A stretch of DNA of 64,000 nucleotides, taken from Thermoproteota archaeon (GTDB taxonomy: Archaea; Thermoproteota; Thermoprotei; Thermoproteales; Thermocladiaceae). Of the stretch, positions 4,803 through 64,000 are shown piece by piece (the stretch's first letter is position 1; each line of letters begins with the position of its first letter). The translations under genes were made by a program, and so were the position numbers. The notes beneath the pieces are model-generated. The model had not been told where the DNA came from. It saw only the letters and a program-made list of their open reading frames with translations, and ran no database searches. The stretch covers positions 17,049 through 81,048 of the forward strand of contig JAADDN010000168.1 in NCBI GenBank assembly GCA_013153895.1, in the 5' to 3' direction.

Positions 4803-7448
4803 TTATGTTTGTTTGAACATTTTTCTTCTTTTTTGTGTTATTATGCTTGTTTTATGTGCTAGGAGTATCAGTATTATGGCTATTATTGTTAGTGTGGCTA
4901 TTCCTGTTATTATGATTATTGGTGTTTTTTTCTGTGATATATTTATCTTTATTTTCATGTTACTGTTCTCAAATATTGTGCTGTTTCCTGCTGTTTCAAG
5001 TATTATTGTTCTGTTACATGATGGCATGGTTAGCATGAAGTTTCCATGTTTGTCTGTTCTTGTTGTGTTAATTATCTGTCTATTATTGCAGTATTCTACT
5101 GCTCTTATCTCTATGTTGGGTATTGGTGTAGCATTGTAGTCTACTACTGTTCCATTTATTACTACTTTTCCATTTACTGTTCTTGTTTTAACATTTTTAA
5201 ATATTAATGATACCTTATATATGGCTATTATAGTCATATTGTTTGGTTTCATTATTACTATACTTGTCTTATTTGCTAGTGGTAGCCCCAGCTTAAGTAC
5301 TCCTGCATGTACTGTCTTCTGTAGTGTTATGTTTGTTCCTGGGCACTTCCATATATGTAATATCTTTATTATTCTTCCTAATGCATCGCGTATTATTATT
5401 GTTAGGTTGTAGAGGTCCTCTATTATTGTTCTGTTGCTTCTGCAGTATACTTCTGCTATTGTCTTATTTTTTAATAGTAGTTTACATTTTCCTTCTATTA
5501 TACCTATTTTTGGTGGTAATGTACCATTTATGATTAGAGTGTAATTCGTAGAGTTTGCTAGTACTAGTGTCTTGGCGTATGGATAGATCTTTACTAGTGG
5601 TATCAGGGTAATGTTTATTGTAGCATTTGCAAGTATTGTTCTCTCTCCCTTATACGTTACTATTCTATGGATGTTGCATCTTGGTATTACTGTCACATTC
5701 ATATGAAAAGCATCTATTCTTGCTTTAGCTATACATATAGGTACGTGTATGAAATGTATCTTTATTGTCCAGTTTCCAGCTGTGAGGTTTGCTAGTCTAA
5801 TTATCTTCAGACACTTCAGTTTAATTGCCCTTCCACAGCATTCTGCATATATAGTTCCATGACATATTGGTGTTATAATGGTCATATTTGGTATAACGGT
5901 TTTTAGTCCTGTAGCTAGGTAGCCGAGAACTACGTTTCTTAGGTCTCTGTAATATACTGTTAGTATTGTTGGTCTTCTCACTATGAAGCATATCTCTGGT
6001 CTGTGAATGATGAGTGTCCTGTTTGTAACTACTTTCCATGTCTTGTTAATGTATTCTGCTATTACTATTCTTGGGTTAAATAGTCTGAACCATCTGTTTA
6101 TTAGACAGATATGACTCATGTTTGCTACTGTGTAGGTAGTGTTGAATCTTACTTCTCTACCGTCTATATATATTATTGTGTTGTTATATATATTATATAT
6201 CTTTCCTGCTATGTTTGGTACACCCATTAGATCTTTAATGTAGCATTCTATTGTTCCTTCTACAGGTTCCCAACATTTCTTCTCTCCTTTCGCCATTCTT
6301 ATTGTTGTGTTAATGTTCTCTGGATACCATATATGTCCATATGTTCTTATCCATGTAGTATTTATTCCAAACATCATTCCACAATATATCCATCTTGATC
6401 CATCATAGATATCGCATGGCACGTTCATTGTCATGTTTTTCATAAATGTAAACCACACTCCATTTATTGATAAACTGCCTCTTGACCATGTTGTCGCGTT
6501 TATTATGACCCAGATATAGCTAGTGAATACAGGTGAGTTAATTCTGGCTCTGTTGCCACAGTACTCTTTTATGGTTCTGTTGCTCAGCATAACTTTTACA
6601 CATATTTGATATTTGATGGATCCTCCTACTGTAATGTTAGCAGTATAGTTTATTAGTCTCATTATATATGATGGAAGGTATAGTAAATATTCTAGTATTC
6701 CCTCATTTAAATATCCTGACTCGTTATATGTGTCTATTAGTGCTACATAATCAATATTAACATAGTATGGATATTTAACATTGGTATAATTGTAACATAT
6801 CATCGTCATATTTATCTTACCAGTATAGTTAAGTGCTGGTACATGTATCCAATAGATCTCCCTTGTATTTGTCAGATTAATTGTTCGTAGGAAAGTCTTC
6901 TCTGGATATGTCATAGATAGGTTACATGCATATCCTATACTGCTTCCACCTACCGCTATTATTAGCCATGTCTTTTCTGTCTTTGATAGATATGGCTGTC
7001 TTACTTTGAAGACTAGTAATATTGTCTTGTTTGGACTATCTATCATATATTTGATATATTTTCCATCTAGCTTCCATATTAGACTGGTATTGAATATTCC
7101 TGTACTACTAATGTTTGTAATAGTTATTGATGGTATATATGTTATGTTTACTTTCCTTGAATAGAGCTCTATCTCATATATTCCCTGTTCTGGTGAATAT
7201 ATTGGCGCTATATTTGGCATCCCAGTCCTATAACTAATTTTTGTGTTCATTGGTGGAATAAAAAGAACATTATATATGAAGGTCAGATTGTATCTGAACC
7301 CGTTAGGTATGTTCCATGTCACAACTATTGGCGTCGCTATGTTAGATGGTAGTGGCTGTATTACTCTTATCTGTGCATTAACCATGCATGCTATAGCTAT
7401 TGCCAGCGCTAGCACTAGTATTAGACCTATCTTACCTATCTTATCCAT
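4803..7448 (-). CDS. Type I membrane glycoprotein (881 aa), surface or envelope protein
   Basis: Signal peptide MDKIGKIGLILVLALAIAIACMVNAQ. C-terminal TM helix IIIITGIATLTIIAIILILLA followed by a basic tail ending QKRRKMFKQT. Very many N-x-S/T sequons. CarboxypepD_reg-like segment VVINGTVVDYNATPIPNIEIRAVEY...TDKHGNF. Confidence 0.85.
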   Translation of the reverse strand: MDKIGKIGLILVLALAIAIACMVNAQIRVIQPLPSNIATPIVVTWNIPNGFRYNLTFIYNVLFIPPMNTKISYRTGMPNIAPIYSPEQGIYEIELYSRKVNITYIPSITITNISSTGIFNTSLIWKLDGKYIKYMIDSPNKTILLVFKVRQPYLSKTEKTWLIIAVGGSSIGYACNLSMTYPEKTFLRTINLTNTREIYWIHVPALNYTGKINMTMICYNYTNVKYPYYVNIDYVALIDTYNESGYLNEGILEYLLYLPSYIMRLINYTANITVGGSIKYQICVKVMLSNRTIKEYCGNRARINSPVFTSYIWVIINATTWSRGSLSINGVWFTFMKNMTMNVPCDIYDGSRWIYCGMMFGINTTWIRTYGHIWYPENINTTIRMAKGEKKCWEPVEGTIECYIKDLMGVPNIAGKIYNIYNNTIIYIDGREVRFNTTYTVANMSHICLINRWFRLFNPRIVIAEYINKTWKVVTNRTLIIHRPEICFIVRRPTILTVYYRDLRNVVLGYLATGLKTVIPNMTIITPICHGTIYAECCGRAIKLKCLKIIRLANLTAGNWTIKIHFIHVPICIAKARIDAFHMNVTVIPRCNIHRIVTYKGERTILANATINITLIPLVKIYPYAKTLVLANSTNYTLIINGTLPPKIGIIEGKCKLLLKNKTIAEVYCRSNRTIIEDLYNLTIIIRDALGRIIKILHIWKCPGTNITLQKTVHAGVLKLGLPLANKTSIVIMKPNNMTIIAIYKVSLIFKNVKTRTVNGKVVINGTVVDYNATPIPNIEIRAVEYCNNRQIINTTRTDKHGNFMLTMPSCNRTIILETAGNSTIFENSNMKIKINISQKKTPIIIITGIATLTIIAIILILLAHKTSIITQKRRKMFKQT

Positions 7449-7498: not shown

Positions 7499-7927
7499 TT
7501 ATAACCTATCTCCAATATATATTACTAGTCTATCTTTTCCATATCCTACCATTATACACTTGTCTTCTAATACACCTATCTCCGTTCTATCTATTCTATA
7601 TGTCTGTGATATCTTGAACATACATGCTGCTTTTAATGGTATTTTAAGTTCTCCCTTCCATATATGTCCATTATTGTCTTTTCCTTCTATCTTATCCTCA
7701 TCTATATATACTTCTCTCAGTGCTGTAAGATTCAGATCAGCTAGCGTAGATGACTCTGCTACTGTTGAAAGCTCCTCTCCTTTCCTGTTGAAGAGAAGTT
7801 CCATACATGTTGGAAGATGTGAGATCTCAAGGTTCCTAACTTCTCTCCCTGTTGCTCTTACTAGTGTTATCAGATTATGCTCTCTCCTACCTATCCTATA
7901 GACCTCGTTATTATAGGTGCAATACAT
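7499..7927 (-). CDS. Hypothetical protein, last gene of the left cassette (P6)
   Basis: ATG start. Lies 2 nt downstream of the stop of 7930-8643, on the same strand as the rest of the cassette. Confidence 0.7.
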   Translation of the reverse strand: MYCTYNNEVYRIGRREHNLITLVRATGREVRNLEISHLPTCMELLFNRKGEELSTVAESSTLADLNLTALREVYIDEDKIEGKDNNGHIWKGELKIPLKAACMFKISQTYRIDRTEIGVLEDKCIMVGYGKDRLVIYIGDRL

Positions 7928-7929
7928 GG

Positions 7930-8643
7930 TTAACTATGTGTTATAATGGCTTTAACATTGTTCTCTCCTTCAAGTATTAGGATTGGATGCTCATGTTCCC
8001 ATGGTAGGAAGAACATGTATACTCTTGCTGGCTTGATCTTCTCGAATGCTCTCCTGATCTCCTCGGTACTATATCTTCCTCTTCCTTTCCAGTTTCCTCT
8101 AAGCTCTAGCTCTGTGCTTAGATTTACATATTCTCCCTCTGCTATGATTCTCCTCTTCTCACCATCTATCTCTATGCTAGATGGTTCAAGTTCTAGAGCT
8201 GTTCTAAGCTTATCCATGTTCTCCGTCTCTATGTAGAGTCCATATTCTGGATCAAGCTTGATAAGCGATATACAGCAGCAGGCTCTGCAGTCTGCATAGT
8301 TTTCTGCTCTTATCTCTATGCTGTTCTTCTTTCTCTCTGCTTTCAATTCTATTCCTGTACTGCATCTAGATGATCCATACTCTTCTATGTAGCTCGCAGG
8401 TACGCAGCATACTGCTCCTCTGCCTATAATATATCCATGTGTTCTGTCTGGGCTGATACAGACTATGGTATTATTATTACAGTAGTATCTGACCATGTTT
8501 TTACAATATTTCTCAGCTATGTCTAGTATCTCTCTGCTAGGCTTCTCAACATATGTCTCAGCTATCGGTATCTTCTCCTCTGAGCTTCCACTTCTTAGAG
8601 CCGTGTCTACAAGTCTTTCTATTTTCTCTTCTATACTACTCAT
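7930..8643 (-). CDS. Hypothetical Cys-rich protein (P5)
   Basis: ATG start overlaps the upstream gene. The N-terminus MSSIEEKIERLVDTAL resembles the partial ORF at 63957 (MNSEKIRKTVEEAFE). Confidence 0.8.
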   Translation of the reverse strand: MSSIEEKIERLVDTALRSGSSEEKIPIAETYVEKPSREILDIAEKYCKNMVRYYCNNNTIVCISPDRTHGYIIGRGAVCCVPASYIEEYGSSRCSTGIELKAERKKNSIEIRAENYADCRACCCISLIKLDPEYGLYIETENMDKLRTALELEPSSIEIDGEKRRIIAEGEYVNLSTELELRGNWKGRGRYSTEEIRRAFEKIKPARVYMFFLPWEHEHPILILEGENNVKAIITHS

Positions 8644-9085
8644 GGTTTATCACCATACACATATAATCATAATATGTTTCCCTTTTCCTGTTCATCATAT
8701 ATGTAGCATAGTCTATCCTGCAGTTAATATCCATGTTACCATAATCATACCTCTTTCCCCTCCATAGAATAGTCATTCTCGGGTTCCCAATAACTTTCAT
8801 GCTCATGTTCATCATGTTCTCTAGATCTGTTATAGGTACAACACCATTATCTATGAAACATCTTGCCTCTATTGTGAAGTCCAGCTCTCTCCTGCCTGTC
8901 CTAAATATCTTGGAGAGAATGTTCTCTATCTCTTCGATGTTCTCTGCTGTCTCTATCATATCTTCTTCTCCAGATAATATCGATATTGTATAACTCTGCC
9001 TACCATTCAACATGTTACACATGTTTGAAAACTTTCTCAGAAGCTCACTGACCTCCCTATACTTTGGATGTAATCTATCGGTCAT
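8636..9085 (-). CDS. Hypothetical protein (P4), paralog of 63537-63953
   Basis: ATGA stop/start overlap with the upstream gene. Shared KRYDYG motif and matching length with 63537-63953. Confidence 0.8.
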   Translation of the reverse strand: MTDRLHPKYREVSELLRKFSNMCNMLNGRQSYTISILSGEEDMIETAENIEEIENILSKIFRTGRRELDFTIEARCFIDNGVVPITDLENMMNMSMKVIGNPRMTILWRGKRYDYGNMDINCRIDYATYMMNRKRETYYDYMCMVINHE

Positions 9086-9423
9086 GACTCTCCCTCGACT
9101 ATTTTTCCTGGAACTATTACTAGTCTATACTTATCTGTATCATCTATAATGAATATATATCTAATAAAGTTGCAATGTTCTTCTAATGGTAGCCTATTAC
9201 TATAATATACTATTACTGGCTTCTCCTCTCCTTTCATATAGATTTCTAATGGTATTCTATCAATTTTTAAACTGTTTTTAGATATGTAAGCTCCATCTAG
9301 GTTCTTCCTGTTTTTAAAATTGTTAGATACTATACATGTATTTCCCTGTCTCTCTCCTCCTAATAATGTACATAGTTGTTCTATGTCCAGTCTGTCTCCA
9401 TCTATCCTCTCTCGAGCTATCAT
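9082..9423 (-). CDS. Hypothetical protein (P3), paralog of 63226-63540
   Basis: ATGA overlaps on both sides. IEQLCTLLGGERQGNTCIVSNNF compares with LEELCNMFGGEYRDGMCIIKNF. Confidence 0.8.
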   Translation of the reverse strand: MIARERIDGDRLDIEQLCTLLGGERQGNTCIVSNNFKNRKNLDGAYISKNSLKIDRIPLEIYMKGEEKPVIVYYSNRLPLEEHCNFIRYIFIIDDTDKYRLVIVPGKIVEGES

Positions 9424-9755
9424 ATGATTATGATTCTGCTCTTCTCCTTATATACTGCTACCCTCCTAGCCAGTCCCCTAGCTCTATATGCTACTGTTCC
9501 TGCCTCTCCTCTTCCAAGTATGCCCATCTCTATGGTCTCTACATCTCTTAGATGTGCCTCCTCTACCTCTCCATGTACATGTTCCTCTCCTATTCTTCTA
9601 AGCTCTATCCTGTTAAGTATTGTTCTATTAGGCTTATAGTAGAGGTCTAATACTGTCTCTATATCATTGTTGAAATATGCTATACAGTAACTACCTGTCT
9701 CTACATATTTTCCACCATATTTATCTACTAGTCTTCTAAGCTGTTCACAGTTCAT
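9420..9755 (-). CDS. Hypothetical protein (P2), paralog of 62897-63229
   Basis: ATGA overlaps. MNCEQLRRLVDKYGGKYVETGSYCIAYF compares with MNCNVLRTLAEKLSGKFFENESACVVYF. Confidence 0.8.
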   Translation of the reverse strand: MNCEQLRRLVDKYGGKYVETGSYCIAYFNNDIETVLDLYYKPNRTILNRIELRRIGEEHVHGEVEEAHLRDVETIEMGILGRGEAGTVAYRARGLARRVAVYKEKSRIIII

Positions 9756-10054
9756 ATCTCCTCACATACTAGCTCCAGTATGAGTCTACCGTTTCTACTT
9801 GTTTTAACTATTCTACACTTCATATCTGCCCTGACATCGCAGAGCTTAGGCAGTAGATATGTTCTGAATAGTGCTTCACATATATGTGCTACTCCTCTAG
9901 GCATTGTACATGTTTCTCCCTGTTCTAGACATCCTCTACATATCAGCTCTCCATCTATTATATCAACTTCCCTACACTTCTCTCTCAACATTCTAACAAT
10001 ATCCTCTCGATACCTCTCCTCGCTAAGTCTAGCTATCTTCTCGAAAATACTCAT
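9752..10054 (-). CDS. Hypothetical Cys-rich protein (P1)
   Basis: ATGA overlaps with both neighbours. It holds the same position in the cassette as 62544-62900. Confidence 0.75.
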   Translation of the reverse strand: MSIFEKIARLSEERYREDIVRMLREKCREVDIIDGELICRGCLEQGETCTMPRGVAHICEALFRTYLLPKLCDVRADMKCRIVKTSRNGRLILELVCEEI

Positions 10055-10515
10055 CTCTTCACCTCTCTAAGATACTCCTCGACAGCTTTCCTAGTAGCCA
10101 TGTTTACAGCCTCCATTCCTGAGAAGACACAGTCATATAGGTTAGAGAGGTTCTTCTCACGTAGAGCAATGTGACAGTAATTTACTAGATCTTTCAGCCT
10201 GCTCTTCCTCTTCTCAAGCTCAGTGTTTACACATGTCATGAACCTGTTAAAGTCTCTATGTTTCTTATACTCGCTGTAACAGTTTATAAAGATATCATTA
10301 ATATTTTTATACTCATTATCTAACTGTTTTGCTACACATTTCTTAAATTCTTTAGGGTCAGAAATATTTAAACATGAGGAGACTATGCTCACAAGATGTT
10401 TGCCTGGGTCAAACTTTGATGTGTCTAAATATTCTTCTACTGGCTTCACACGGCTTATTATGGTTATGAACCTGTCAGCTATGTTACTCATCGATAGATC
10501 TATATACTCTATCAA
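10051..10515 (-). CDS. Hypothetical protein (P0), paralog of 57148-57597
   Basis: The track start is TTG at 10515, and an in-frame ATG at 10491 is the alternative start. HRDFNRFMTCV matches THDFNKFTACV, and the C-termini are similar. Confidence 0.75.
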   Translation of the reverse strand: MIEYIDLSMSNIADRFITIISRVKPVEEYLDTSKFDPGKHLVSIVSSCLNISDPKEFKKCVAKQLDNEYKNINDIFINCYSEYKKHRDFNRFMTCVNTELEKRKSRLKDLVNYCHIALREKNLSNLYDCVFSGMEAVNMATRKAVEEYLREVKR

Positions 10516-10655: not shown

Positions 10656-11516
10656 CTAGCATATTTCAATGCTTAGATTCTTATCAAGCAGATCAAAGTT
10701 CTTGTACACCATGTTTCCACATATGCCTCTTCTAATAGCCTCCTCCATGATCTTCATATGGTTTCCCACACGCAGCTTCTTTGCAAGTACAGCAACTAGT
10801 AGATAGGTTAGGCACTGTATTGACTGGTAGTGGTACTCTCTTACTGTCCTGTTCTTTAATAGTGTAATAGCTATCTTATATATTAATGGTCTAAATTGTT
10901 CATCTACATATTTAACTGCTTCTTCAAGTATTGGAACATACATTATCTCTTCTTTTATATATTTTGTAAACATTTTCTTTGCTTCTGGAAAATATTTATG
11001 ATCTACCCTTATCTTCTTCAGAATATATGTCATAGTCTTATAATGTATTCTAATCTTCTTACTATACTGTACATATAGTATCATCATTATCTTAACAAGT
11101 TTAAGCGTTCTCGTAGGGTCTCTAGTCTCATGTAGGAGACTTTCAACTATTTTTCTAAACGTTTCTAGTGGAATGTCAGATGTCTCTACCCTAATGTTCA
11201 GCATCTCGTTATATGCTCTCAGTGTTGATTCTAGTGCTGTGTCAAGTATTCTCCTTACCTCGTCTTCAAATGTTCTTATTCCTATCTTCTTCTTCTCCTC
11301 TATACTTATCCTGGATCCTATCATTGTTACCTTTGTTCTCTGTATATGCATACGTGCTAGATATTGTTCTGGTGTATATGCTCTTGGTTCTGGATGTTCT
11401 ATGTCTATTACTCTCTCCTGTATCACTGTTCCACAGTTTGTACATATGTATTCTCCTCTCTCTATGTCTAGTACTATTCTATCTGATCCACAGTATGGGC
11501 AGCGTTCTACTGCCAT
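10656..11516 (-). CDS. tfb: Divergent transcription factor B (TFIIB-like)
   Basis: N-terminal zinc ribbon CPYCGS...x...CTNCG, followed by IDIEHPEPRAY (B-reader/linker position) and about 200 aa of helical, cyclin-fold-sized region. GGAG lies 5 nt upstream of the ATG. Confidence 0.75.
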   Translation of the reverse strand: MAVERCPYCGSDRIVLDIERGEYICTNCGTVIQERVIDIEHPEPRAYTPEQYLARMHIQRTKVTMIGSRISIEEKKKIGIRTFEDEVRRILDTALESTLRAYNEMLNIRVETSDIPLETFRKIVESLLHETRDPTRTLKLVKIMMILYVQYSKKIRIHYKTMTYILKKIRVDHKYFPEAKKMFTKYIKEEIMYVPILEEAVKYVDEQFRPLIYKIAITLLKNRTVREYHYQSIQCLTYLLVAVLAKKLRVGNHMKIMEEAIRRGICGNMVYKNFDLLDKNLSIEIC

Positions 11517-11924: not shown

Positions 11925-13532
11925 ATGTTTAACATGGGTCATCTCCGCCATGATCAGGAGAGAGCGGTTTCACATGTATTAAAATGTCTTGAGAGGAGGA
12001 GGGTGACTGTTCTTAGGGCTCCTACAGGTTTTGGAAAGACTCTTACTGGGATCGAGATTGCTAGGAGGTGGGGTGAGTCTACTGTTGTAGCGGTTCGTAC
12101 TAGGAATCAGCTGTCTAGATATGTTGAGGATATGGTATTATTCTATAATGATGTTCCTAGGATTCTTCTTAATAGATTGTTAACATGTTTTAAATATGGT
12201 AGTAACTGTAAGTCATGCTTGTTTAACAATGTTCTTGATAAGAAGGTAATTATCAGTAATAGACTATTTGATCCATATAGTAGAGATGTCTTATACTTTT
12301 TCAGGAGTAGGGGAGCATGTTTGTATAGGTCTTTCACGTCTATTGACTCTAATCTGACTGTCTGTACGTATCCTTTCATTATTCATTCGCGTCTTCGTAG
12401 GAGGATTGGTTCTCCTTCTCTGTTGATTATTGATGAGGCTCATAATATTGAGAATATTACTTCTATTGTCATAGATGTTAATAGGGTTCTGAGATTGTTA
12501 TCAATGTTTCTTGATGTTGTTAAGAGGAGGAGAATACGTGATAGTATGGTTCTTCACTGTATGAATAATGTGATGACCTATATACGGTCTGTTAAGAATC
12601 TTGATCATGTTAGGGAGATTCTTACATGTCTTGAGACAGTTTTCTCGCGTCTCTTCTCTGATTCTTCTCCTCCTCTAGAGCTTGCTGAGCTTTTTGTTGA
12701 GGTTTGTTCATGTTTTGAGACTGTTCTTGAGATGGGTCTGGACTATATTACATATGATAATAACATGTTAATGTTTAGGACTCTTGATCTTGAGATGATT
12801 GGAAGGTTTCTAGAGCAGTTTGATAGGGTTGTCCTCATGTCTGCTACCCTGCCTGATAGATGGTTTCTGCGCCAGGTATGGGGTATAGATGATGTTGAGG
12901 TTATAGATGTTGATTATAGGTATGATAATATTTCTATAAGTATTATACCTGATGTCACGTCTAGATTCTCTAGACGTAGTGTAGAGATGTATCGTTCTAC
13001 TGCTGCTATTCTTGATCGTATAGTGTCTAGGGCTGATAAGAATGTTCTGATCTTCTTCCCATCATATGAATATCTTAGAAACACGGCAAGACACATGAGG
13101 ACCAGGATAGAACAGGTATCAGATATAGGCGAGGCTGTTAAGCTTGCTAGAGAGGGAAAACATGTATATGCAGATGTCATCGGTGGAAGACTTAGCGAGG
13201 GTATAGAGCTTGTGGATAGGGTGAGGAGGACTCTACTTGTTTCTGATCTAACTGTTGTTGGGATACCATATCCAAAATATGATGAATATATGAGAAGACT
13301 GTTGAAAAGGCTTGAAGATAGAGGCATAAGACCAGAAGTATATCTAATAGAGAAGGCTTGGACTGGTGTTAGACAGGCGATAGGTAGAGCATGTAGGTTA
13401 GGATATAGTGGGCATGTAAGAATATGGCTTCTAGATGAGAGGTATAGGTCTGAGATATGGCTTAGAAAGATATATACATTGAGTAGAGATGTTAGGATAG
13501 TACCTGCATGTTCTATAATAGGTCTATCTTAG
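11925..13532 (+). CDS. XPD/Rad3/DinG-family SF2 helicase
   Basis: Motif I APTGFGKT, motif II IIDEAHNIE (DEAH), motif III MSATL, GRLSEGIEL, motif VI QAIGRACR. Four Cys between motifs I and II (TC..NCKSC...AC) fit an FeS domain. Confidence 0.85.
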   Translation: MFNMGHLRHDQERAVSHVLKCLERRRVTVLRAPTGFGKTLTGIEIARRWGESTVVAVRTRNQLSRYVEDMVLFYNDVPRILLNRLLTCFKYGSNCKSCLFNNVLDKKVIISNRLFDPYSRDVLYFFRSRGACLYRSFTSIDSNLTVCTYPFIIHSRLRRRIGSPSLLIIDEAHNIENITSIVIDVNRVLRLLSMFLDVVKRRRIRDSMVLHCMNNVMTYIRSVKNLDHVREILTCLETVFSRLFSDSSPPLELAELFVEVCSCFETVLEMGLDYITYDNNMLMFRTLDLEMIGRFLEQFDRVVLMSATLPDRWFLRQVWGIDDVEVIDVDYRYDNISISIIPDVTSRFSRRSVEMYRSTAAILDRIVSRADKNVLIFFPSYEYLRNTARHMRTRIEQVSDIGEAVKLAREGKHVYADVIGGRLSEGIELVDRVRRTLLVSDLTVVGIPYPKYDEYMRRLLKRLEDRGIRPEVYLIEKAWTGVRQAIGRACRLGYSGHVRIWLLDERYRSEIWLRKIYTLSRDVRIVPACSIIGLS

Positions 13533-17315: not shown

Positions 17316-18477
17316 TTATGACCACCTTCAAAGCATTAACAAGAATGTCAGGGCTATTTACAACAAGAGCAGACACCTTCCTAGCAAGAGTACTAGTACA
17401 GTAACATGGAACGAACCTCCCCGTAAGAGCATTACCAAGATATATCGGGCATATTCCCTTATAAGCAAAACTGTATGTACCCCTGAGAACATTATACCTA
17501 AGATTGTTCTCGGGAGGAGTCCTACAGATATACTCCTCCCCATTTACAGTATATCTCAAACGTTGAACAATACTAAACAGCTGATCCTCACTTAACCCAA
17601 CAATCTTCAAAGCACCTAGAAACTCAACCTCAAAAACCGTATGTAATCCACGTGGTATAGATGTGGGATATGTTATAGATGGAAGCTCTATAGGTCTATT
17701 ATTTATGAGACATGTAACATAGTACCTCGTACATTCACCACATCCAGCAGCAGAAAAACAGAGCTGAGCATAGACTAGAGCCCTCTCAAGAGGGAGAGAA
17801 GTCACAATCCTCCTGACAGGACCAGGAGCCTCAGCAAGCTCTACCCTGCCCTCGATCCGTTCAACATATGTACCATAGCACACATCCTCTACAGCACGTA
17901 CAAGCATTTTCAAACGATCATAAACATCTCTAAGACACTTCTCAACACTTTCAATACCAGTCCTACTAACCTTAACATAGTGAAGCACCTCCCTACCACC
18001 ATCATACTCTATGACCAGCCTAGACGGATAAGTAATAACATAACCAAAAGTCTTATTATCAAAAACCCCTTTAACACCAGTAAACTTCCTAGCCAGATCA
18101 AGCTCATCCCTCTCCAATCTCGTGACAATATGGTACCCACCTGTAGCAGTAACCTCAACAAAAACCTCATCAGGACTAAGAAACCTCCATATCAGATCAA
18201 TAGGAACCCTAGCATCAAGATCAAGAATAAATAATCTAGAAGGAGCACCAGCAACACCAAAAGCAGAACAACCAGCACAGACACGCCTAACAGCCATCTC
18301 AGAAACATCACTATACAAGACAGCACAATCATAACAGTACCTCAACCCCCTAGGAACAAGAGGACACTTCGCAACCGCAACAGCCTCCTCACGACTACAC
18401 CCCCTACCAAAACCCCTAACAGGAACCAGCATGAAACCCTTATTAAACAGCTCCCCCACAAAATCACAGAGACCCAT
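17308..18477 (-). CDS. Archaeo-eukaryotic primase superfamily prim-pol
   Basis: LFILDLDARV (DxD) and VEVTATGGYHIV (sGGxH) in the order expected for the Prim-Pol domain. Its 3' end overlaps the helicase start by 8 nt. Confidence 0.75.
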   Translation of the reverse strand: MGLCDFVGELFNKGFMLVPVRGFGRGCSREEAVAVAKCPLVPRGLRYCYDCAVLYSDVSEMAVRRVCAGCSAFGVAGAPSRLFILDLDARVPIDLIWRFLSPDEVFVEVTATGGYHIVTRLERDELDLARKFTGVKGVFDNKTFGYVITYPSRLVIEYDGGREVLHYVKVSRTGIESVEKCLRDVYDRLKMLVRAVEDVCYGTYVERIEGRVELAEAPGPVRRIVTSLPLERALVYAQLCFSAAGCGECTRYYVTCLINNRPIELPSITYPTSIPRGLHTVFEVEFLGALKIVGLSEDQLFSIVQRLRYTVNGEEYICRTPPENNLRYNVLRGTYSFAYKGICPIYLGNALTGRFVPCYCTSTLARKVSALVVNSPDILVNALKVVINA

Positions 18478-19812
18478 CAGAAACAGAAGAAGAGAAAAAA
18501 TAAAAACAAAACACTAAACACCAACACACAGTAATAACCCAAAAAACAACAGAAAAATACACCAAGGAACAAAACAACAAACCAAAACAAAACACCACAA
18601 AAATGCGAGTAATACCCACAAAATAAAAACACACCAAGGAACAAAACCGAGTCACACTCCACATTCTCCCCCAGTTCACAGACTAAACCACCCACCAAAA
18701 CTATACACTCTTTCCACACAACACCAAAACTTGTGAACTCCCAACCTCCCTACTTCGCGTAAGTATCTCCCCCGCTACATTAAATACGAGTGCGCCCCCG
18801 CCTTCACGGGTTGTGGAAAATCTCGCAAAATAACATCTCTCTACATGTCAAAAATAAACGATTAAAAACCAATTATGATAATGCTCACACAGACTTAAAA
18901 TAACAATAAAACACAAAAACATACAACCTTAAAAACCCAAAAGAAAAAACATCAACACACAACAAAAAACAATAAGACACAACAGAACAAGATACTTCAT
19001 ACCCCACATTTAGATACCAATAACATGAAAACGAGACCTTCACACCATATATTCTACAAGGCTACCATAAACTCCACAAGAAAACAAACAACTCCACAAG
19101 AAACATCATTACAAAAATCAATTAGCCCTAATTGACCAATGCATTACTCATCAATTAGAGATGCATTATGGTAGAATTGAAATATTAATGCATTCTCAAT
19201 TGACCACCAATTAACCCCCCAGCCGAGAATACATTAACTCTCAATTGAAGCTAATGCATGAAGAATAGAAACAAAATCACAGAAAGTACATGACAAGACC
19301 AAACACCCTAAAAAGAAAACAACACTCCCAAACCAGAACACCTGTGAAAAACATATACGTAATACCACACAAAAATACAAAAACAAACTTAATTAAACAG
19401 CAAAATAATAAATTAAAAAGAGAACGAAACAACACACAGAGGTTTTCTAAAGACAAACCATACACAACTACACAGAAAACAGCAGAAAACAAGTAAAACC
19501 AATAGAATAAATATACCAATAAACCATAAACTCTAGAAAACAAACAGCACTAGAAAACTAATAACATTGATAAAACATGTATAAAAACAATCAAAACAAT
19601 ACACCACACCAGACAGAATAACCATACAATAGACCACGTCGAAGATTATAACTCAAAGTAATACTACAATTTAAGAATAGAAAAACATAAAACATCATAA
19701 AAATACATTAAAACAATAATAACCATATATAGGTAATAAAGATCAAAATAAGACATAAATAAAGTAAAAAGATATAAAAGAAGACTAACATACATGAAAG
19801 AACATATGTACC
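18478..19812. other. Non-coding arm, extremely A+C-rich on the + strand, with short internal repeats and ATGCAT/CAATTG motifs
   Basis: Positions 18481-18540 contain 51/60 A+C (counted). ACACCAAGGAACAAAAC occurs twice, and AACTCCACAAGAAA occurs twice in tandem near 19069-19104. AATGCAT occurs near 19138, 19187 and 19253. Confidence 0.7.
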
Positions 19813-20277
19813 TTATTGACGGCTTTTCAATATATTTATCCATGGATTATCCATTAAGTCCATTAGAATGTTATTATCATGTTTCTTCTCTGTATTACTC
19901 TCATTTTTATACTCTATCTTTTCTATACGTTCTCTAATGTATGATTTATCTATTTTTGATGAAAGTTCTTCAATTTTTCTTTCAAGAATTTCAATCCTAT
20001 TTTGTAAACTTTTAACTATAGTATACATATCTATACTAGACCTATCTTCTACATACATTGCAGTATTATTCACATCTCTACATGATAGTATTTTTCTGAG
20101 GTATGAAGTATCTAGCCTAAATGCTATATCTCTCATAGTTTCTAAACCTAGATGATCTATAAGCAGTTTCACTATTTCCGCACCAAGTTCTATGATTCTA
20201 CTCTGAGAAACATGCAACATATCTGCTAACTGTTCTATAAGTTTTTTAGTATGCTCTCTTACTGTTAGTGTAGGCAT
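19813..20277 (-). CDS. Ribbon-helix-helix (CopG/Arc-like) DNA-binding protein with a coiled-coil C-terminal half
   Basis: MPTLTVREHTKKLIEQLADMLHVSQSRIIELGAEIVKLL fits a strand-helix-helix pattern. It is the only normal-composition ORF inside the 3.6-kb gap. Confidence 0.65.
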   Translation of the reverse strand: MPTLTVREHTKKLIEQLADMLHVSQSRIIELGAEIVKLLIDHLGLETMRDIAFRLDTSYLRKILSCRDVNNTAMYVEDRSSIDMYTIVKSLQNRIEILERKIEELSSKIDKSYIRERIEKIEYKNESNTEKKHDNNILMDLMDNPWINILKSRQ

Positions 20278-21082
20278 GTATATTATAGATATATGAGATA
20301 TATAAACATTCTTGATTAATCATGAAAGATGAGATTGATAATATTCATAAAATATATCTAAATTATATTTATCATGTAGACGTGTCGTCGTTCAACGTAT
20401 TACCGTACTAATATGATTCTATGTTTCTATTTCTAGAATATTGTTACATGTTTGATATAGTAGTTATAGATGGTTTTTGAAGGTTTATCTATATTATTTA
20501 GAATGTATATAAATGATGTGACTGACCAGGTAACAGAGTTGGTAGGGGTCTAGGACTACCTCATAGGATGGAATTGTTCTTCATTTTTTAATTGTTAATC
20601 TATGTATCTATATGTACTATAGGTTACATTTATTTTGTCTAGTTTTTAGACGTGGTTAAAATATTTATTTTCATGTATATACTTGTTACCGTGTTTTGTA
20701 TTATTTTCAGTGTTTTTAGAACGTTCTTATCAGTGTATAATATCTATTATCTATGCTATGTTATATGTATTATGATTATCTGTGTATATTATTCTCTTAT
20801 TATAACATGTTTGGGAGCTAATTGAAACTAATTGAAGTGAAGTTGGGTATTTTTCATGTTTTATATGTTCTATGTTTTTGTGTGTTGTTTTATGTGTTTT
20901 GTTGTTGTTTGATTGGTTTTTCTTTGGTCTTGGTTCTGTTTCTGGTCTGTGCTTGTTTTTGTGTTTTTGTCTTTTAGGATGGCATTTAATTGGACATGCA
21001 TTATATGTATTTTTATGTTGTTTTATGTACTTAATTAAACGTTAATTGATTTCTTGTTCCTGTTCTGTGATTTATTTTTGAT

Positions 21083-21121
21083 GGTTTATGTATTTTTGTG
21101 ATATACATTAGGGGTCAATTA
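21083..21121 (+). repeat. Iteron-like module, copy 1
   Basis: GGTTTATGTATTTTTGTGATATACATTAGGGGTCAATTA. Confidence 0.7.
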
Positions 21122-21243
21122 ACGTATGATTAAGTGTGTTAGTATTTATAAAAATACATTTAATGCATGCTCAATTAGGTCACTGGGTCTGAGTCTACGT
21201 GTCCGTTGGCTGTGCATTATGGTGTTAATATGTGATTATTATT

Positions 21244-21274
21244 GTATTTTTGTGAGATACATTAGGGGTTAATT
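21244..21274 (+). repeat. Iteron-like module, copy 2
   Basis: GTATTTTTGTGAGATACATTAGGGGTTAATT matches 21090-21120 at 29 of 31 positions (counted). Confidence 0.7.
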
Positions 21275-21315
21275 GGTCATGGTCCTATGTGGTAGTTGGG
21301 TGTGTTCTGATTGTT

Positions 21316-21334
21316 CAATTAGTCCCTAATGTAC
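21316..21334 (-). repeat. Inverted copy of the TACATTAGGG-N-CAATT core
   Basis: The reverse complement reads GTACATTAGGGACTAATTG. Another inverted core, CCTAATGTA, lies at 21507-21515. Confidence 0.6.
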
Positions 21335-21847
21335 TTGATAAAAGGTTATTGATGTATGTTTTTGGTGACCATAATGTATGGCTAATTATGTGTATGTTTT
21401 TGATCTTTTGTTATCATGTTTATTCGTTTAATGCATCTGCGGTTAGCTGGACTCTAGTGCAGCTAGTTATTTTATGTGTATTTATAACTTTTTATGATGG
21501 GGACGACCTAATGTATCCATGATGTGGTATTTTTCTCAAGTACATTGATATAATATAGGTTATAGATGTTTGTTATTGGTGTTTAATGTTTAGATGTTAG
21601 GTGATATGGAGTTGAAATGGGGGTTATAGAATTTCTATGTATTATTATACTGTTATGGTTATTAATGTTTTCTATTGTTTTTTATGTTTCTTAATTACTG
21701 GGTTTTCACAAGTTTTCTAGTTTGTGAATTGTTTCAGAATTTAAAATGTATAGTTATGTTGTTTTTTATATTTTTATGATATATGTCTGATATGTTTGTA
21801 TGTGGTTTATTGTTTTTGGTATCATGTTTTTGCTCTGTTTTTGTGTT

Positions 21848-21880
21848 GGTTTATGTATTTTTGGCAGGTACATTAGGGAG
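21848..21880 (+). repeat. Iteron-like module, copy 3 (more diverged)
   Basis: GGTTTATGTATTTTTGGCAGGTACATTAGGGAG. The first 15 nt are identical to 21083-21097. Confidence 0.6.
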
Positions 21881-22133
21881 TTTTGGAACAATAGTATTTG
21901 TTATTGTGTTTTTATGTTTTTGTTTGGTGTTTTGTGTTGTTTTTCGTGTTTGTGGTTTATTGTTTTTCATTGTTGTTTTGTTTTCTTTTCTATGTTTTGT
22001 TTCTCGGTTTTATGTCAATGTACTTCAGATTTTTGTTAGTGTTCTTGTGCTTCTAATGTGTTGGGGATCTGGCTGCAGGTAGTGCGGCTGTGCTGTATGT
22101 TCCTATTATTAATCTTGTTAGTTAGATAGTTCT

Positions 22134-39996: not shown

Positions 39997-40314
39997 ATGT
40001 ATAGTAAGGTCCTAGCTGAGAAGTCTAGTGTTAGTAGTCTAGTTGTTCCTGATCAGATATTTATGTTTGGTAGTTATATATGTGGTAGAGTGTTTATAAA
40101 TGATGAAGTAGACTTAGAGACATATCAGAGAATAGAGGATGAGATGTATGGTATAGCTGTCCTAGAATCGGACAAGGAGCCTGAGAACAGGGTAAAGGTG
40201 AGAAGCATTGTAACATGTATACGAGGCATAGGTGAGAGAAATCTGAATGATCTAGCTAGGAGTATAGTGATAGCTTACATAAATCTGAGAGATATGTATA
40301 GGATGAGAAGATGA
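39997..40314 (+). CDS. Hypothetical 105-aa protein
   Basis: ATG start. Its stop overlaps the next start (ATGA). Confidence 0.7.
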   Translation: MYSKVLAEKSSVSSLVVPDQIFMFGSYICGRVFINDEVDLETYQRIEDEMYGIAVLESDKEPENRVKVRSIVTCIRGIGERNLNDLARSIVIAYINLRDMYRMRR

Positions 40315-41336
40315 GCCTATCACAGTCTCTTCTAAGGATTGAGGAGGAGCTTAGGAATCTTGCAACAGAGCTGCAGGAGGCTAGGACTGGGAGAGATACA
40401 TATAGTGGGGACAGGTTTCTAGAGGTCTATCATAAGCTTGTAGATGTTAATCTGAAGCTTGAGAGCATCTATAGGACGTGTCTAGAACGTTCAGAGACGG
40501 AGAAGCCGTTACAGCTCTTCTGTAGGTTGATATATAATATATATCTAGGATTGAATGATCTTATACATGACATGAATAAAAATTGTAATGTATCTAATGG
40601 AGTATTTACATGTCTTAATATTAATGTTGAGAAGATTAGAAGAGAACTATGTAACAATGTTCTAGAGCTGACTGGAAGAAAATGCGGTAACCTGATACTC
40701 TATGATACGAGCCTTCAGCCACCAGCAATTATAGATGGCATAGCTAACTGTGTACATGTACTAGCTGAGGAGCTGATGAAGATGGAGACCTGGAGAAGAG
40801 TAGGAAGATGCTACTTGAATGAGAACTCTAGCAGAAGCATTGTAGAGCTCTGTGAGAAGTGGAGCGAGTATATTAACAGGTTCGATCCATATTATATGAG
40901 TGAGGATATTGAGAACGTTTTCGGATATGGTATAGATGGTAAAGCATATTTTAGAGTAGGATCAGCAGCGGGACATGCAGCAAATATAGATTTTAACAGT
41001 GGGACATTCACATATTATGATAATGATCTTAATGTTGTATCTCTAGTACATACATATGTTGAAAAGTATATGAATGGTGCATGCATGTTTAATAGAGAGA
41101 ACAGTGAATTAAAATGTACTATACCGAATATTGATAAGAAGATAGATGATATAGCATATCTCCTAGCATCTGTAACCAGCATGGATATTAGACTAGCAAA
41201 CGCTAATGTAGATGCTAAGAAGCTTATACCGATAAAGATAGCAAAGTCAACATATAACTATGATAGAGAGATAGCATTAGAGAAAGGTCTCGAGAACACT
41301 TCTAGAACATATATAACAGTTCTAGGAGGAGAGTAG
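40311..41336 (+). CDS. Family-A protein, copy 1 (paralog of 43566-44567)
   Basis: Shares TGRxCGNLxLY..S.Q.PAxIDGxANCxHVxAEEL, RVGRC and RVGSxxGHAxxIDF with copy 2. Confidence 0.85.
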   Translation: MSLSQSLLRIEEELRNLATELQEARTGRDTYSGDRFLEVYHKLVDVNLKLESIYRTCLERSETEKPLQLFCRLIYNIYLGLNDLIHDMNKNCNVSNGVFTCLNINVEKIRRELCNNVLELTGRKCGNLILYDTSLQPPAIIDGIANCVHVLAEELMKMETWRRVGRCYLNENSSRSIVELCEKWSEYINRFDPYYMSEDIENVFGYGIDGKAYFRVGSAAGHAANIDFNSGTFTYYDNDLNVVSLVHTYVEKYMNGACMFNRENSELKCTIPNIDKKIDDIAYLLASVTSMDIRLANANVDAKKLIPIKIAKSTYNYDREIALEKGLENTSRTYITVLGGE

Positions 41337-41337
41337 T

Positions 41338-42243
41338 ATGGAGCCGATACATGTTAAAGAAATTATAAACAGGATAGCTGAGACCGTTAGAGACCTCGCT
41401 AGAGTAAAAACATGTTTAACATCTAATAATAGGAGAGAAGAAGTATCATGCCTATTAGACCTATATGAGAGAAGAGATAGACTGCTCGCACTTGTAGATG
41501 ATTTGAAGAAGCTTGCAGTAGCAGCACGGTACTTATATGGTCCAGAGTTCGGATACGTTCTCTACTATGTTAATAATATGGCTAGAGATGTTGACAAGAT
41601 AGTGAAGACGTTGGACTATGAGATAAATAGCTCAACTATAAGAAAGATGCCTACGAGACTTATAGCCCATGAGATAGGTGATGAATTGCAGGAACTAGTT
41701 ATTAACATGGTAGAGCTGGCAGACGTGTTGAGAAGACTTGGAAATGAGGATCTCTACATCTATGGTACATGTATCATACGTGGAGAACCTAGAACAGATC
41801 TGAAAACACGGTACATATGTGCAGGAGGACCTACACCACTTATAGTTGACAGAGATAAGATAGTTACATATGGAATAGACTTCCAGGGAAAAGAATATGC
41901 AGCAGAGCTTAGAGACCATGAGATAAAGCTAGAGTTTGAACTGCCTGTACTAGAGACTGGGAGAGAGTATTACCATGAGATACTTCCAAAAGATATGAAA
42001 TGTGAATCAACTATAGATGAGGAAGCTGGAACGCTAGTATATACATGTAGAGGAACAGTGCCAGATATGAAGGAGATTCTGAAAAATATTGAGCTAGCAA
42101 GAGAGCTTGAATCAATATCTCCACCACATGTAGAGAACATTCTTAGAGACACAATGCTTAGAGGAATGGAGATAGATAAGAACATGCCACTAGACATGAA
42201 CTGGAGAAGAGCACTCAAGCTGTCACTACCATTACCAGGGTAG
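41338..42243 (+). CDS. Family-B protein, copy 1 (paralog of 44564-45418)
   Basis: NEDLYIYGTCIIRGEP compares with NEDLHIYSGCIVRGRP. It holds the same position, right after the family-A gene. Confidence 0.85.
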   Translation: MEPIHVKEIINRIAETVRDLARVKTCLTSNNRREEVSCLLDLYERRDRLLALVDDLKKLAVAARYLYGPEFGYVLYYVNNMARDVDKIVKTLDYEINSSTIRKMPTRLIAHEIGDELQELVINMVELADVLRRLGNEDLYIYGTCIIRGEPRTDLKTRYICAGGPTPLIVDRDKIVTYGIDFQGKEYAAELRDHEIKLEFELPVLETGREYYHEILPKDMKCESTIDEEAGTLVYTCRGTVPDMKEILKNIELARELESISPPHVENILRDTMLRGMEIDKNMPLDMNWRRALKLSLPLPG

Positions 42244-49830: not shown

Positions 49831-50112
49831 ATGGATAAGAGAGATATAGTCCTAAATGATATATCTGAAAGACTTGTAAGCTATATTCTAGCTAACTGGA
49901 GAAGATATGCATATCTAGACAATTCTAACTGTATAAACATGCCGCTTACCAGGATAGCTAAAGAAGTTGTTAATGAGAGAGTTGACAGAGCAACACTTGG
50001 ACAGGCATATTCAAAGGTGAGGGAAAGATTCAGGAAGATGGGTTATAGGGTAGTACTGAAGAGGAGGTGGGCTAAGAATGGTTCTACCTGGATAGAGATA
50101 TGTAGGGACTAG
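49831..50112 (+). CDS. Small basic protein, possibly winged-helix
   Basis: ATG start, 93 aa. LTRIAKEVVNERVDRATLGQAYSKVRERFRKMGY looks HTH-like. Confidence 0.65.
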   Translation: MDKRDIVLNDISERLVSYILANWRRYAYLDNSNCINMPLTRIAKEVVNERVDRATLGQAYSKVRERFRKMGYRVVLKRRWAKNGSTWIEICRD

Positions 50113-51998: not shown

Positions 51999-52055
51999 GT
52001 GTTTATAATAGGTTATGCGATATTAAAGCGGGATCTATGATGGTTAAGTGAGTAG

Positions 52056-52063
52056 TTTATATA
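52056..52063 (+). promoter_or_regulatory. TATA box
   Basis: TTTATATA centred 27 nt upstream of the ATG at 52087. Confidence 0.5.
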
Positions 52064-52086
52064 CCCTAACACTCATCTACGGTAAC

Positions 52087-57147: not shown

Positions 57148-57597
57148 GTGAGCACTTTTCTGACATATGTAAAAGACTATCTTAACAAGCTTACTTTCAA
57201 CCTAAAGAACATTCCTGGAAGCGAGATATTTAACGATTTCATAACATCATGCATAACAACAGACCAGCAGCTTACAACAGTACGTAGAAGCGAGATAAAA
57301 CAGTTCTACCGTTGCATACGTAGGAACGTTGATCTAGGAAGCAGATTGTTCGATACTGCAGTATCATCATGCTTATCATCATGGTACAGGACACATGACT
57401 TCAACAAGTTCACAGCATGCGTACTTGACCGTGTTGGGAGGCACCCTATATCTAACATAGTTAAAATATGTGCAGAATCACTTCCAGAGGATGAGAAGCT
57501 TCCATACGCATTGACAATGTGTGTATATGGTGGTATAGAACTGTTTAACAGTGCAGTAAATAGACTATATAAGGACCTTAAGAAGATAGTCAAGTGA
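57148..57597 (+). CDS. Paralog of 10051-10515 (P0 family)
   Basis: GTG start. See the P0 motifs above. Confidence 0.7.
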   Translation: MSTFLTYVKDYLNKLTFNLKNIPGSEIFNDFITSCITTDQQLTTVRRSEIKQFYRCIRRNVDLGSRLFDTAVSSCLSSWYRTHDFNKFTACVLDRVGRHPISNIVKICAESLPEDEKLPYALTMCVYGGIELFNSAVNRLYKDLKKIVK

Positions 57598-62543: not shown

Positions 62544-62900
62544 ATGGTACTGTTTATTAGTTTTCTCATGGTTCTCTATGTTATGGATGTTGGAGATGTT
62601 CTAGATATTGTTGAGAGGACTAGTATGGAGCTGTTTATGAGGAAGCTTACTGAACGGTTGTCTAAAATGTGTAGGAGTGTTAGTATTGTTGGTACAGAAG
62701 TTATAGGTGATGACTGTATAACCTGTAGTGACCTGCGTAGGCTTGGGGGCGAGTCGTTTAAGGCTGATGCAATGTTTGTAGAGGAGGATTATTATCCAGA
62801 TATTGTTAATATTCGTACAAGATTTATAGGGAAGATAAAAGTTGAAAAGGGAGAGAACATGTTTATGATAGGTATAGAGTTTCCAGGTGAGAGGATATGA
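62544..62900 (+). CDS. Right-cassette P1' protein
   Basis: First gene of the right cassette. The start is uncertain: ATGs at 62544, 62568 and 62583, with GTTTATAGTT only about 10 nt upstream of the first. Confidence 0.65.
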   Translation: MVLFISFLMVLYVMDVGDVLDIVERTSMELFMRKLTERLSKMCRSVSIVGTEVIGDDCITCSDLRRLGGESFKADAMFVEEDYYPDIVNIRTRFIGKIKVEKGENMFMIGIEFPGERI

Positions 62901-63229
62901 ACTGTAATGTTCTTAGGACTCTTGCTGAGAAGCTGAGTGGAAAATTTTTCGAGAATGAGAGTGCATGTGTTGTATATTTTGACCGTCCTGTGAGGGCTAG
63001 GGCTGTTGTTGATTTTGATAGTGTTTCATATAGGGTTAATAATATTTTTCTTGAAGATGTTGATAATGTTTCTATTAATTCTGATATAATGTACATGTTT
63101 ATGACTGATGTGGAGGCTAAGGAATATGGTATAGCTGTTACTAGTGATAGAGTAGATATATATAGGGTCAGCGGTAATGTTCGTAGGATCGTAATTGATA
63201 AGAGGATTGGAAAGATGTATATGTTATGA
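62897..63229 (+). CDS. Right-cassette P2' (paralog of 9420-9755)
   Basis: ATGA coupling and the shared N-terminal motif. Confidence 0.8.
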   Translation: MNCNVLRTLAEKLSGKFFENESACVVYFDRPVRARAVVDFDSVSYRVNNIFLEDVDNVSINSDIMYMFMTDVEAKEYGIAVTSDRVDIYRVSGNVRRIVIDKRIGKMYML

Positions 63230-63540
63230 GGCTTGAAGAGCTCTGTAACATGTTTGGTGGAGAGTATAGGGATGGGATGTGTATTATTAAGAATTTTGTA
63301 ACATCTGAAAAATATCTGGATGCTACTGATAGTATTACTCTGAGGAATAGTGATATTCTAATAATTAGGAAGCCGTTTGGTGAGATAGTTAGTTCTGATA
63401 AGCCTATTATAGTTGCATTCAGCGATAAGTTGAATGTTTCTGAATATGGTCCATACTATATCTATGATATGGTTATTGGAGAGTCTGGAAACTATCTCAT
63501 TATTCTGCTTCCCGAGAAGGTGCGTAAGGTGGTGAGATGA
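63226..63540 (+). CDS. Right-cassette P3' (paralog of 9082-9423)
   Basis: ATGA coupling and the shared motif. Confidence 0.8.
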   Translation: MRLEELCNMFGGEYRDGMCIIKNFVTSEKYLDATDSITLRNSDILIIRKPFGEIVSSDKPIIVAFSDKLNVSEYGPYYIYDMVIGESGNYLIILLPEKVRKVVR

Positions 63541-63953
63541 GTCTTGGAGGGATCCTATCTAGGTTGGAAATGTTTGACAGGTTCTGCCGTTCTGTTAATG
63601 GTGTTCCAGAGTATAGGGTGGAGATATCTATGAGTAGTAGCAGTATTGAGTTCAGTACAGGTAGGCTGGATGAGGTTGAGAGCAGGATTAGTCGTCTTCA
63701 TCTTGAGAATGCTAGGAGATTTAACATGTATATAACTGCGTCATGTATAGTGTCGGGGATAGTTCCGACAGCTGAGATAAGTTCAAGATTTGACGCTCCT
63801 GTTGATGGTGTTGGCAGGTTAGCGATCTATTATAACAGGAAGAGGTATGATTATGGTGTTGGTAAGCTGAGATGTATGTATGGTATATATAAATTTAATG
63901 ATAGGAGTTATGATAATGAGAGCTGTAGTCTAAGTATAATAGAGGGTGAGTAG
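63537..63953 (+). CDS. Right-cassette P4' (paralog of 8636-9085)
   Basis: ATGA coupling and KRYDYG. Confidence 0.8.
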   Translation: MSLGGILSRLEMFDRFCRSVNGVPEYRVEISMSSSSIEFSTGRLDEVESRISRLHLENARRFNMYITASCIVSGIVPTAEISSRFDAPVDGVGRLAIYYNRKRYDYGVGKLRCMYGIYKFNDRSYDNESCSLSIIEGE

Positions 63954-63956
63954 TTA

Positions 63957-64000
63957 TGAACAGTGAGAAGATTAGGAAAACAGTTGAGGAAGCGTTTGAG
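63957..64000 (+). CDS. Right-cassette P5', N-terminal fragment running off the window
   Basis: ATG at 63957 gives MNSEKIRKTVEEAFE. Not in the track because it has no stop. It resembles the start of 7930-8643. Confidence 0.5.

Follow-up and report, generated by a model that had tools for sequence, protein, structure and literature searches.

The 64-kb stretch of DNA analyzed herein (the window; positions 17383-81382 of a 90,945-bp JGI contig) carries two copies of a tightly packed gene set, designated cassettes A and B, the products of which fall into seven families (F0 to F6). On the basis of sequence comparisons, the cassette is a real and conserved operon that was duplicated as a whole. Structural models of two of its products, F5 and F6, are predicted to look like DNA sliding clamps, with F6 being modeled confidently and F5 poorly. 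We propose that the cassette encodes a clamp-like multi-subunit module that has not been described before and exists in two paralogous versions, each of which would be one DNA-associated complex built around proteins with the sliding-clamp fold. We assign a probability of approximately 0.45 to this reading. Judging from its gene content, the contig is probably a large virus or plasmid of a crenarchaeal host related to Ignicoccus.

Cassette A occupies 10515 to 7499 on the minus strand and comprises seven tightly packed genes, which are listed in Table 1 with the other features. An earlier note on this DNA, made from the sequence alone, had described these genes as tightly coupled, and the junctions agree with that description. 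The first four junctions, from F0/F1 to F3/F4, are 4-nt ATGA overlaps, the F4/F5 overlap measures 8 nt, and F5/F6 are separated by a 2-nt gap. The likely start of A0 is ATG 10491, with a TATA-like TTTATTT approximately 27 nt upstream. Cassette B begins at 62544 on the plus strand and repeats the gene order of cassette A, as the same note had claimed; its last two genes lie past the window end and were followed in L005, a stretch of the same contig that reaches beyond this end. In cassette B, F1/F2, F2/F3, F3/F4, and F5/F6 overlap by 4 nt, and a 2-nt gap separates F4 and F5. The fragment that had been noticed at the window end is indeed a paralog of A5; however, it starts at 63956 rather than 63957. 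The lone gene that had been taken for an additional paralog of the first gene (B0) matches A0.

All A/B pairs are similar at the protein level, with identities of 23-35%. The E values of the blastp comparisons were 4e-10 for F0, 3e-3 for F1 (the weakest), 1e-12 for F2, 7e-13 for F3, 1e-11 for F4 (including the KRYDYG motif), 8e-5 for F5, and 2e-15 for F6. The similarity between A1 and B1 is weak on its own, and the pairing is backed by gene position and by a match between B1 and the F1 protein of a related locus, L013 (1.5e-6). Since blastp among F0-F6 did not reveal any significant match across families, the presence of six collinear A/B pairs is not expected by chance. The sole match between the DNA of the two cassettes is one exact word of 18 nt and, therefore, the similarity exists only at the protein level, which had also been stated in the earlier note. 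Family hidden Markov models (HMMs) did not detect a third copy of any F family in 75.6 kb of the contig. Cassettes A and B are ancient paralogs rather than recent repeats.

The cassette is not confined to this contig. An exhaustive HMMER search with the F6 pair retrieved six further proteins, with E values of 1.6e-32 for P0007 and approximately 1e-15 to 1e-12 for P0008-P0011. The sixth, a 445-aa repeat protein (P0012, E 9e-5), appears to reflect a coincidence of beta-hairpin repeats and was not used; with this protein discounted, F6 occurs in five more lineages. Locus L008 (8.3 kb) has the layout of cassette A, consisting of an XPD-like helicase, a 74-aa gene, a TFB-like gene, F0-F6, and a large protein, at identities of 28-59%. 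L012 carries F1-F6 in an unchanged order, and L013, which was taken from a 35-kb contig, carries all six genes in the order F1-F2-F5-F6-F3-F4. This 35-kb contig and the window have at least a dozen other genes in common, such as a subtilase (56%). Two short contigs hold F5-F6 (L011) and F6 followed by a serine recombinase (L016; gene at L016:570-950), the latter 32% identical to the recombinase next to cassette B.

Every locus on a sufficiently long contig has all of F1-F6 (three lineages and both copies in the present contig), and the adjacent pairs F1F2, F3F4, and F5F6 are unbroken even in the permuted L013. Gaps between cassette genes range from -14 to +18 nt across all loci, and GGTGA-type Shine-Dalgarno motifs precede many of the internal starts. 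In distance trees, A grouped with L008, and L012 with L016 and L011, while B and L013 each stood alone; these four deep groups are mutually approximately 25-30% identical. F0 is confined to cassette A, L008, and the detached B0; the A0 ortholog in L008 is 54% identical. The retention of F1-F6 together through deep divergence and rearrangement is good evidence of a functional unit. The earlier note had inferred a multi-subunit complex from the tight coupling, and the view that the genes act as one functional unit is upheld by the packed co-occurrence of F1-F6 in both copies and in L008, L012, and L013; the survey of gene order that it had suggested found the set kept and the order permuted in L013.

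Sequence searches did not connect the subunits to any described family. No match for any of F0-F6 was obtained in Pfam, PHROGs, PADLOC, or NCBIfam, and the best E values in PHROGs and PADLOC were only 0.005-0.07 over short stretches. Searches of PDB sequences with pair profiles or profiles of five to six sequences did not yield a match for any family. When three pair profiles were used in a word-indexed search of 5.8 billion proteins, the contig's own proteins were the only matches. Scans of IMG/VR, GTDB genomes, and INPHARED at the DNA and protein levels did not identify relatives, and a scan of JGI metagenomes found only near-identical contigs. Profile hits did not place any subunit in a well-known complex. 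Neither a six-gene set of this kind nor the elements themselves were found to be described in the searchable literature. The earlier note had not recognized any subunit, which stands at the level of sequence families and no longer holds at the level of the fold, since the models of F6 (confident) and F5 (poor) match sliding clamps. The only other signal was a PADLOC match to Cas5b (12.9 bits, E 0.018); we rejected a relation to Cas5b or a Cascade-like repeat-associated mysterious protein (RAMP) because this was the sole signal and the fold search points to clamps. The window does not contain CRISPR repeats or arrays.

All-versus-all hhalign comparisons of F1-F6 did not detect significant internal paralogy. 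F2, F3, and F4 share a short N-terminal helix-Cys-Gly motif, for which column-shuffle controls gave 1/60 for F2-F3, 0/60 for F3-F4, and 0/60 for F2-F4; this marginal signal is suggestive only. A Chou-Fasman style secondary-structure predictor had a three-state accuracy (Q3) of only 0.58-0.60 against the AlphaFold2 (AF2) models and was too weak to be applied to F1-F4.

The clamp-like character of the cassette emerged from structural comparisons. A PCNA protomer of approximately 245-260 aa contains two topologically identical domains, each with a strand-helix-3 strands unit repeated twice, and a final strand with a LAP(K/R)(I/V) signature. PCNA acts as a closed six-domain ring around DNA and is loaded by an AAA+ clamp loader. 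We modeled F6 from seven diverse sequences and A5 with its paralog only. The F6 model had a predicted local distance difference test score (pLDDT) of 93.6 and a predicted TM-score (pTM) of 0.85. The top 50 Foldseek matches of this model in PDB were all PCNA, Rad9-Hus1-Rad1 (9-1-1), or beta clamps, with E values from 6e-3 and query-based TM-scores (TMq) of 0.29-0.47. In BFVD, its named top matches were phage sliding clamps, beta clamps, a mimivirus PCNA, and a poxvirus PCNA-like late transcription factor, and the other top matches were nameless entries; the best E value was 2.8e-3 and the best TMq 0.50. Across the two libraries, the probability of the F6 matches was up to 1.00. Similarly, each of the top 21 PDB matches of the F5 model was a sliding clamp, with an alignment that spans the full length. 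This list comprised Sulfolobus PCNA1/2/3 and bacterial beta clamps, followed by 9-1-1. The best match was 2izo_C (E 2.3e-3, probability 0.99, TMq 0.36), and TMq did not exceed 0.37 overall. The strand-helix-3 strands-helix-3 strands succession that characterizes a clamp domain is present in the C-terminal half of the F5 model and, in part, in its N-terminal half.

Two further features of F5 fit PCNA. The length of the family is PCNA-like (237-259 aa), and five of its six members carry a C-terminal ..AP[KRTL][IVM].. motif, which is found in none of the 212 other open reading frames (ORFs) of at least 100 aa in these loci. The same motif ends Pyrococcus furiosus PCNA (sequence verified against 1GE8). 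An hhalign comparison of F5 columns 204-256 with PCNA 204-255 placed the motif in register, but the alignment was non-significant (Prob 0.15%, E 0.4). PCNA_N (PF00705) and PCNA_C (PF02747) of Pfam did not match A5 or any of the six F5 members at E values up to 10, no clamp was listed in a PDB hmmsearch with the six-sequence F5 profile, and a scan for viral PCNA to deepen the PCNA profile did not find any. The cassette probably works like a clamp; however, we do not file it as PCNA because F5 shows no PCNA relation by sequence and has weak fold matches, while its size and C-terminal motif fit.

The same observations allow for a narrower reading, in which F5 is the only clamp, namely, a diverged viral PCNA that forms a homotrimer or joins or mimics the host heterotrimer, and the other genes are separate accessory or regulatory operon mates. 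Crenarchaeal hosts use heterotrimeric PCNA, the entries of which head the F5 match list, and F5 has the size and fold matches of PCNA. Furthermore, F1-F4 do not have a detectable relation to clamps or to one another. However, the six families have stayed together in each lineage seen, even after rearrangement; F6 is itself clamp-like and always beside F5; and every subunit was duplicated and kept as part of a whole set. We consider this reading to be fairly unlikely.

In the module that we prefer, F1-F6 and the loosely attached F0 would be co-transcribed and translationally coupled in undescribed large mobile elements of vent Crenarchaeota related to Ignicoccus, and the products of F1-F6 would form one DNA-associated complex. 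F5 would be a diverged two-domain PCNA-like protein and F6 a clamp-like domain that is always encoded beside it. The two may sit side by side in a complete or partial ring, with F1-F4 as obligate partner subunits. The complex may encircle or track DNA and thereby tether enzymes of the element; we infer complex formation, ring closure, DNA tracking, and the client enzymes. The two sets are anciently diverged, would each have co-evolved, and are presumably non-interchangeable. A more specific arrangement is a clamp ring distributed over five or six polypeptides, in which the six domains would come from F5 (two domains) and the single-domain F2, F3, F4, and F6, with F1 and F0 as accessory proteins and two orthogonal versions, A for transcription or repair and B for the serine recombinase. 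We regard this arrangement as unlikely.

Several points weigh against a clamp-like module. Gene linkage is what suggests a physical complex of the cassette products, and the fold evidence covers two of the seven families, F5 and F6. The AF2 model of F5 is of low confidence (pLDDT 49.5, pTM 0.50). The Foldseek matches are weak (E approximately 2e-3 to 6e-3, TM 0.36-0.50, root-mean-square deviation 8-15 A), and F6 has short helices only, in a strand/helix order that is atypical for a clamp domain. Pfam, PDB hmmsearch, and hhalign did not link the sequences of F5 or F6 to PCNA or any clamp. Moreover, 75 kb of sequence did not reveal a recognizable DNA polymerase or primase or a clear clamp loader, and the sole PHROG match to a clamp loader (E 1.2e-5) may only reflect a generic AAA+ protein. 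The clamp matches may be artefacts of beta-rich models, which would leave a conserved operon of entirely unknown biochemistry; TM values of 0.50 or less, E values of approximately 1e-3 to 1e-2, the low-confidence F5 model, and blank profile methods are consistent with this explanation. However, two proteins searched in two libraries gave top lists of clamps only (in BFVD, among the named matches) rather than mixed folds, and the length and C-terminal motif of F5 fit PCNA. We judge an artefact to be improbable.

Table 1. Coordinates of the genes of cassettes A and B and their neighbors. Positions refer to the window, except those prefixed with L005.
Feature (family)	Position	Strand	Length (aa)	Remarks
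A0 (F0)	10051..10515	-	~146-154	First gene of cassette A; six conserved Cys
A1 (F1)	9752..10054	-	100	Cys-rich; CxxC present but not kept by every F1 member
A2 (F2)	9420..9755	-	111	N-terminal motif C..L..L....GG.Y, then conserved Cys
A3 (F3)	9082..9423	-	113	N-terminal motif L C..LGG, then conserved Cys
A4 (F4)	8636..9085	-	149	GKRYDYG motif
A5 (F5)	7930..8643	-	237	Predicted two-domain sliding-clamp-like (PCNA-like) protein
A6 (F6)	7499..7927	-	142	Best-conserved subunit; predicted clamp-like beta-rich domain
B0 (F0)	57148..57597	+	149	Detached paralog of A0; GTG start; TTTAAAAATT box ~27 nt upstream
B1 (F1)	62544..62900	+		Likely start ATG 62583 (or 62568)
B2 (F2)	62897..63229	+	110	
B3 (F3)	63226..63540	+	104	
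B4 (F4)	63537..63953	+	138	KRYDYG motif
B5 (F5)	63956..64000	+	238	First 15 codons in the window; full gene beyond the window, L005:10420-11136
B6 (F6)	L005:11133-11588		151	Same contig, beyond the window
Serine recombinase	L005:11585-12349			Just beyond the window end; C-terminal Zn-ribbon-like CxxC...CxxC
TFB-like protein	10656..11516	-		Directly upstream of cassette A; only the TFIIB Zn ribbon detected; position kept in L008
XPD/Rad3-like superfamily 2 (SF2) helicase	11925..13532	+		Neighbor of cassette A; same place in L008 (59% identity)
Giant secreted/anchored protein 1	4803-7448	-	881	Directly downstream of cassette A
Giant secreted/anchored protein 2	starts 4763, runs off window start	-	2298	

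The two cassettes differ in their neighborhoods. Set A has the genes for a TFB-like factor and an XPD-like helicase as neighbors, as in L008. Set B is translationally coupled to a serine recombinase, a neighborhood that recurs in L016; the start of the recombinase gene next to cassette B overlaps the B6 stop by 4 nt (ATGA). Based on these differing neighborhoods, we speculate that the two sets may serve different DNA transactions.

The two giant proteins that follow cassette A are rich in N-x-S/T sequons, with faint matches to CarboxypepD_reg and Big_1, and they have homologs in the same place in L008 and L013. A further reading is that the cassette may be a structural or assembly module for these glycoprotein-like surface proteins, encoding, for example, virion or appendage parts or chaperones. 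In A, L008, and L013, the giants are encoded on the same strand after 35-50 nt, have a signal peptide and a transmembrane (TM) anchor, and range from 881 to more than 2000 aa. However, no signal peptide or TM segment was read from the sequences of the cassette proteins, no such giants follow cassette B, L012, or L016, and the fold matches are DNA clamps with no structural proteins among them. A structural role appears to be very unlikely.

The cassette may also be an anti-host or anti-defense block; its fast-evolving small viral proteins, one of them a PCNA mimic, would then hijack or inhibit the replication or immunity of the host. The proteins are small, extremely diverged, and orphan, and genes of the Csx3 family as well as a GmrSD-like gene are present on the element. 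However, PADLOC and anti-CRISPR family searches did not yield any match beyond noise, and the fixed six-gene make-up and lengths conserved over deep divergence are unlike accessory islands, which shuffle. We find such a role to be distinctly unlikely.

The contig originates from an active sulfide chimney on the East Pacific Rise (IMG 3300005095). The Crenarchaeota metagenome-assembled genomes (MAGs) of that chimney study have been described as distantly related to Ignicoccus, and NCBI lists the cassette proteins as hypothetical, under a MAG named 'Crenarchaeota archaeon'. The GC content of the window is 37%. Searches for tRNA, rRNA, and Rfam families in the 64 kb did not yield a match, and no capsid or packaging gene was identified. 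Roughly one fifth of the approximately 100 ORFs of the window have a Pfam family. These families include XPD-like, Hjm-like, and DEAD helicases, a protein with only the Zn ribbon of TFIIB, NrdD, dCTP deaminase (Dcd), and an AAA+ ATPase. Also among them are a subtilase, a GmrSD-like protein, two Csx3-family proteins, and a serine recombinase, as well as a nucleotidyltransferase and an RNA ligase.

Four other regions of the element attracted our attention. The region 18477-22100 has the lowest GC content of the window (0.29) and an abrupt switch of the GC skew from -0.43 to +0.33. The left part is AC-rich and the right part GT-rich, and the region has only small ORFs, which are directed away from the center, tandem repeats of 20 nt, and several inverted-repeat pairs of 30-49 nt (e.g., 18553-18601 / 21949-21997). 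This stretch may serve as an origin of replication or as a regulatory hub. A second duplicated module is located at 40311-42243 and 43566-45418, where tandem genes for proteins of 341 and 301 aa are repeated as genes for 333 and 284 aa. The copies are 41 and 27% identical, with a 59-nt stretch that is 90% identical in DNA, and none of the genes has a family match. Therefore, the duplication of whole modules recurs in this genome. The Csx3-family match lies in two small ORFs (best E 3.4e-13), and the GmrSD-like gene is at 52048-53268. Members of Csx3 are cyclic-oligoadenylate ring nucleases, and these genes hint at interplay with host defense. A small paralog pair at 49831-50112 (+) and at window-equivalent positions 69844-70137 (-) encodes proteins of 93 and 97 aa with 35% identity and no family match.

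Every sliding clamp known to date is a homo-oligomer or a heterotrimer, the protomers of which have two or three domains. If our reading is correct, a conserved operon in which a PCNA-like protein is combined with a stand-alone clamp-like domain and four small obligate partners, and which one genome maintains in two diverged sets, would represent a novel mode of building or using a DNA clamp and would provide the first functional handle on undescribed large mobile elements of deep-sea vent Crenarchaeota, the genes of which are approximately 80% orphan. If the clamp reading fails, the cassette will still be among the few orphan gene sets of these elements with clear evidence of a co-evolving unit and, therefore, a good target for structural work.

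Among known systems, 9-1-1, which appears among the fold matches, is a heteromeric ring of diverged clamp-fold subunits. In contrast to the cassette, it is eukaryotic, comprises three two-domain subunits, and has no sequence relation to the cassette proteins. In both BFVD and PDB, the confident F6 model best matched phage and bacterial clamps (T4 gp45-type and the DnaN beta clamp), reaching a TMq of 0.50. A beta clamp suggests a simple equivalence, in which F5 (two domains) and F6 (approximately one domain) would equal one three-domain protomer. Unlike these clamps, F6 is a stand-alone protein of 142 aa with short helices, and no cognate loader or polymerase was found nearby. Clamp-dependent late transcription, as in T4 gp45-gp33-gp55 and with poxvirus VLTF-1/G8R, links a viral clamp-fold protein to a viral basal transcription factor, and VLTF-1 is found at rank 30 among the BFVD matches of F6. 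Cassette A offers a parallel because a TFB-like gene lies directly upstream of it and of its counterpart in L008 (one lineage pair), which we regard as an analogy only.

The nearest known system is the crenarchaeal heterotrimeric PCNA, represented by Sulfolobus PCNA1/2/3 (2HIK, 2IX2, 2NTI, and 2IZO). Unlike Sulfolobus PCNA, to which it has no detectable sequence homology, the cassette consists of six or seven genes with products that are mostly half as large as a PCNA protomer, and its Cys-rich subunits are encoded in a coupled operon that resides on a mobile element in two versions. However, Sulfolobus PCNA has the same length as F5, provides the best F5 fold matches, and shares with it a ..LAPR/K.. 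type C-terminal ending. In both systems, a single genome encodes several clamp-fold polypeptides, which presumably work together.

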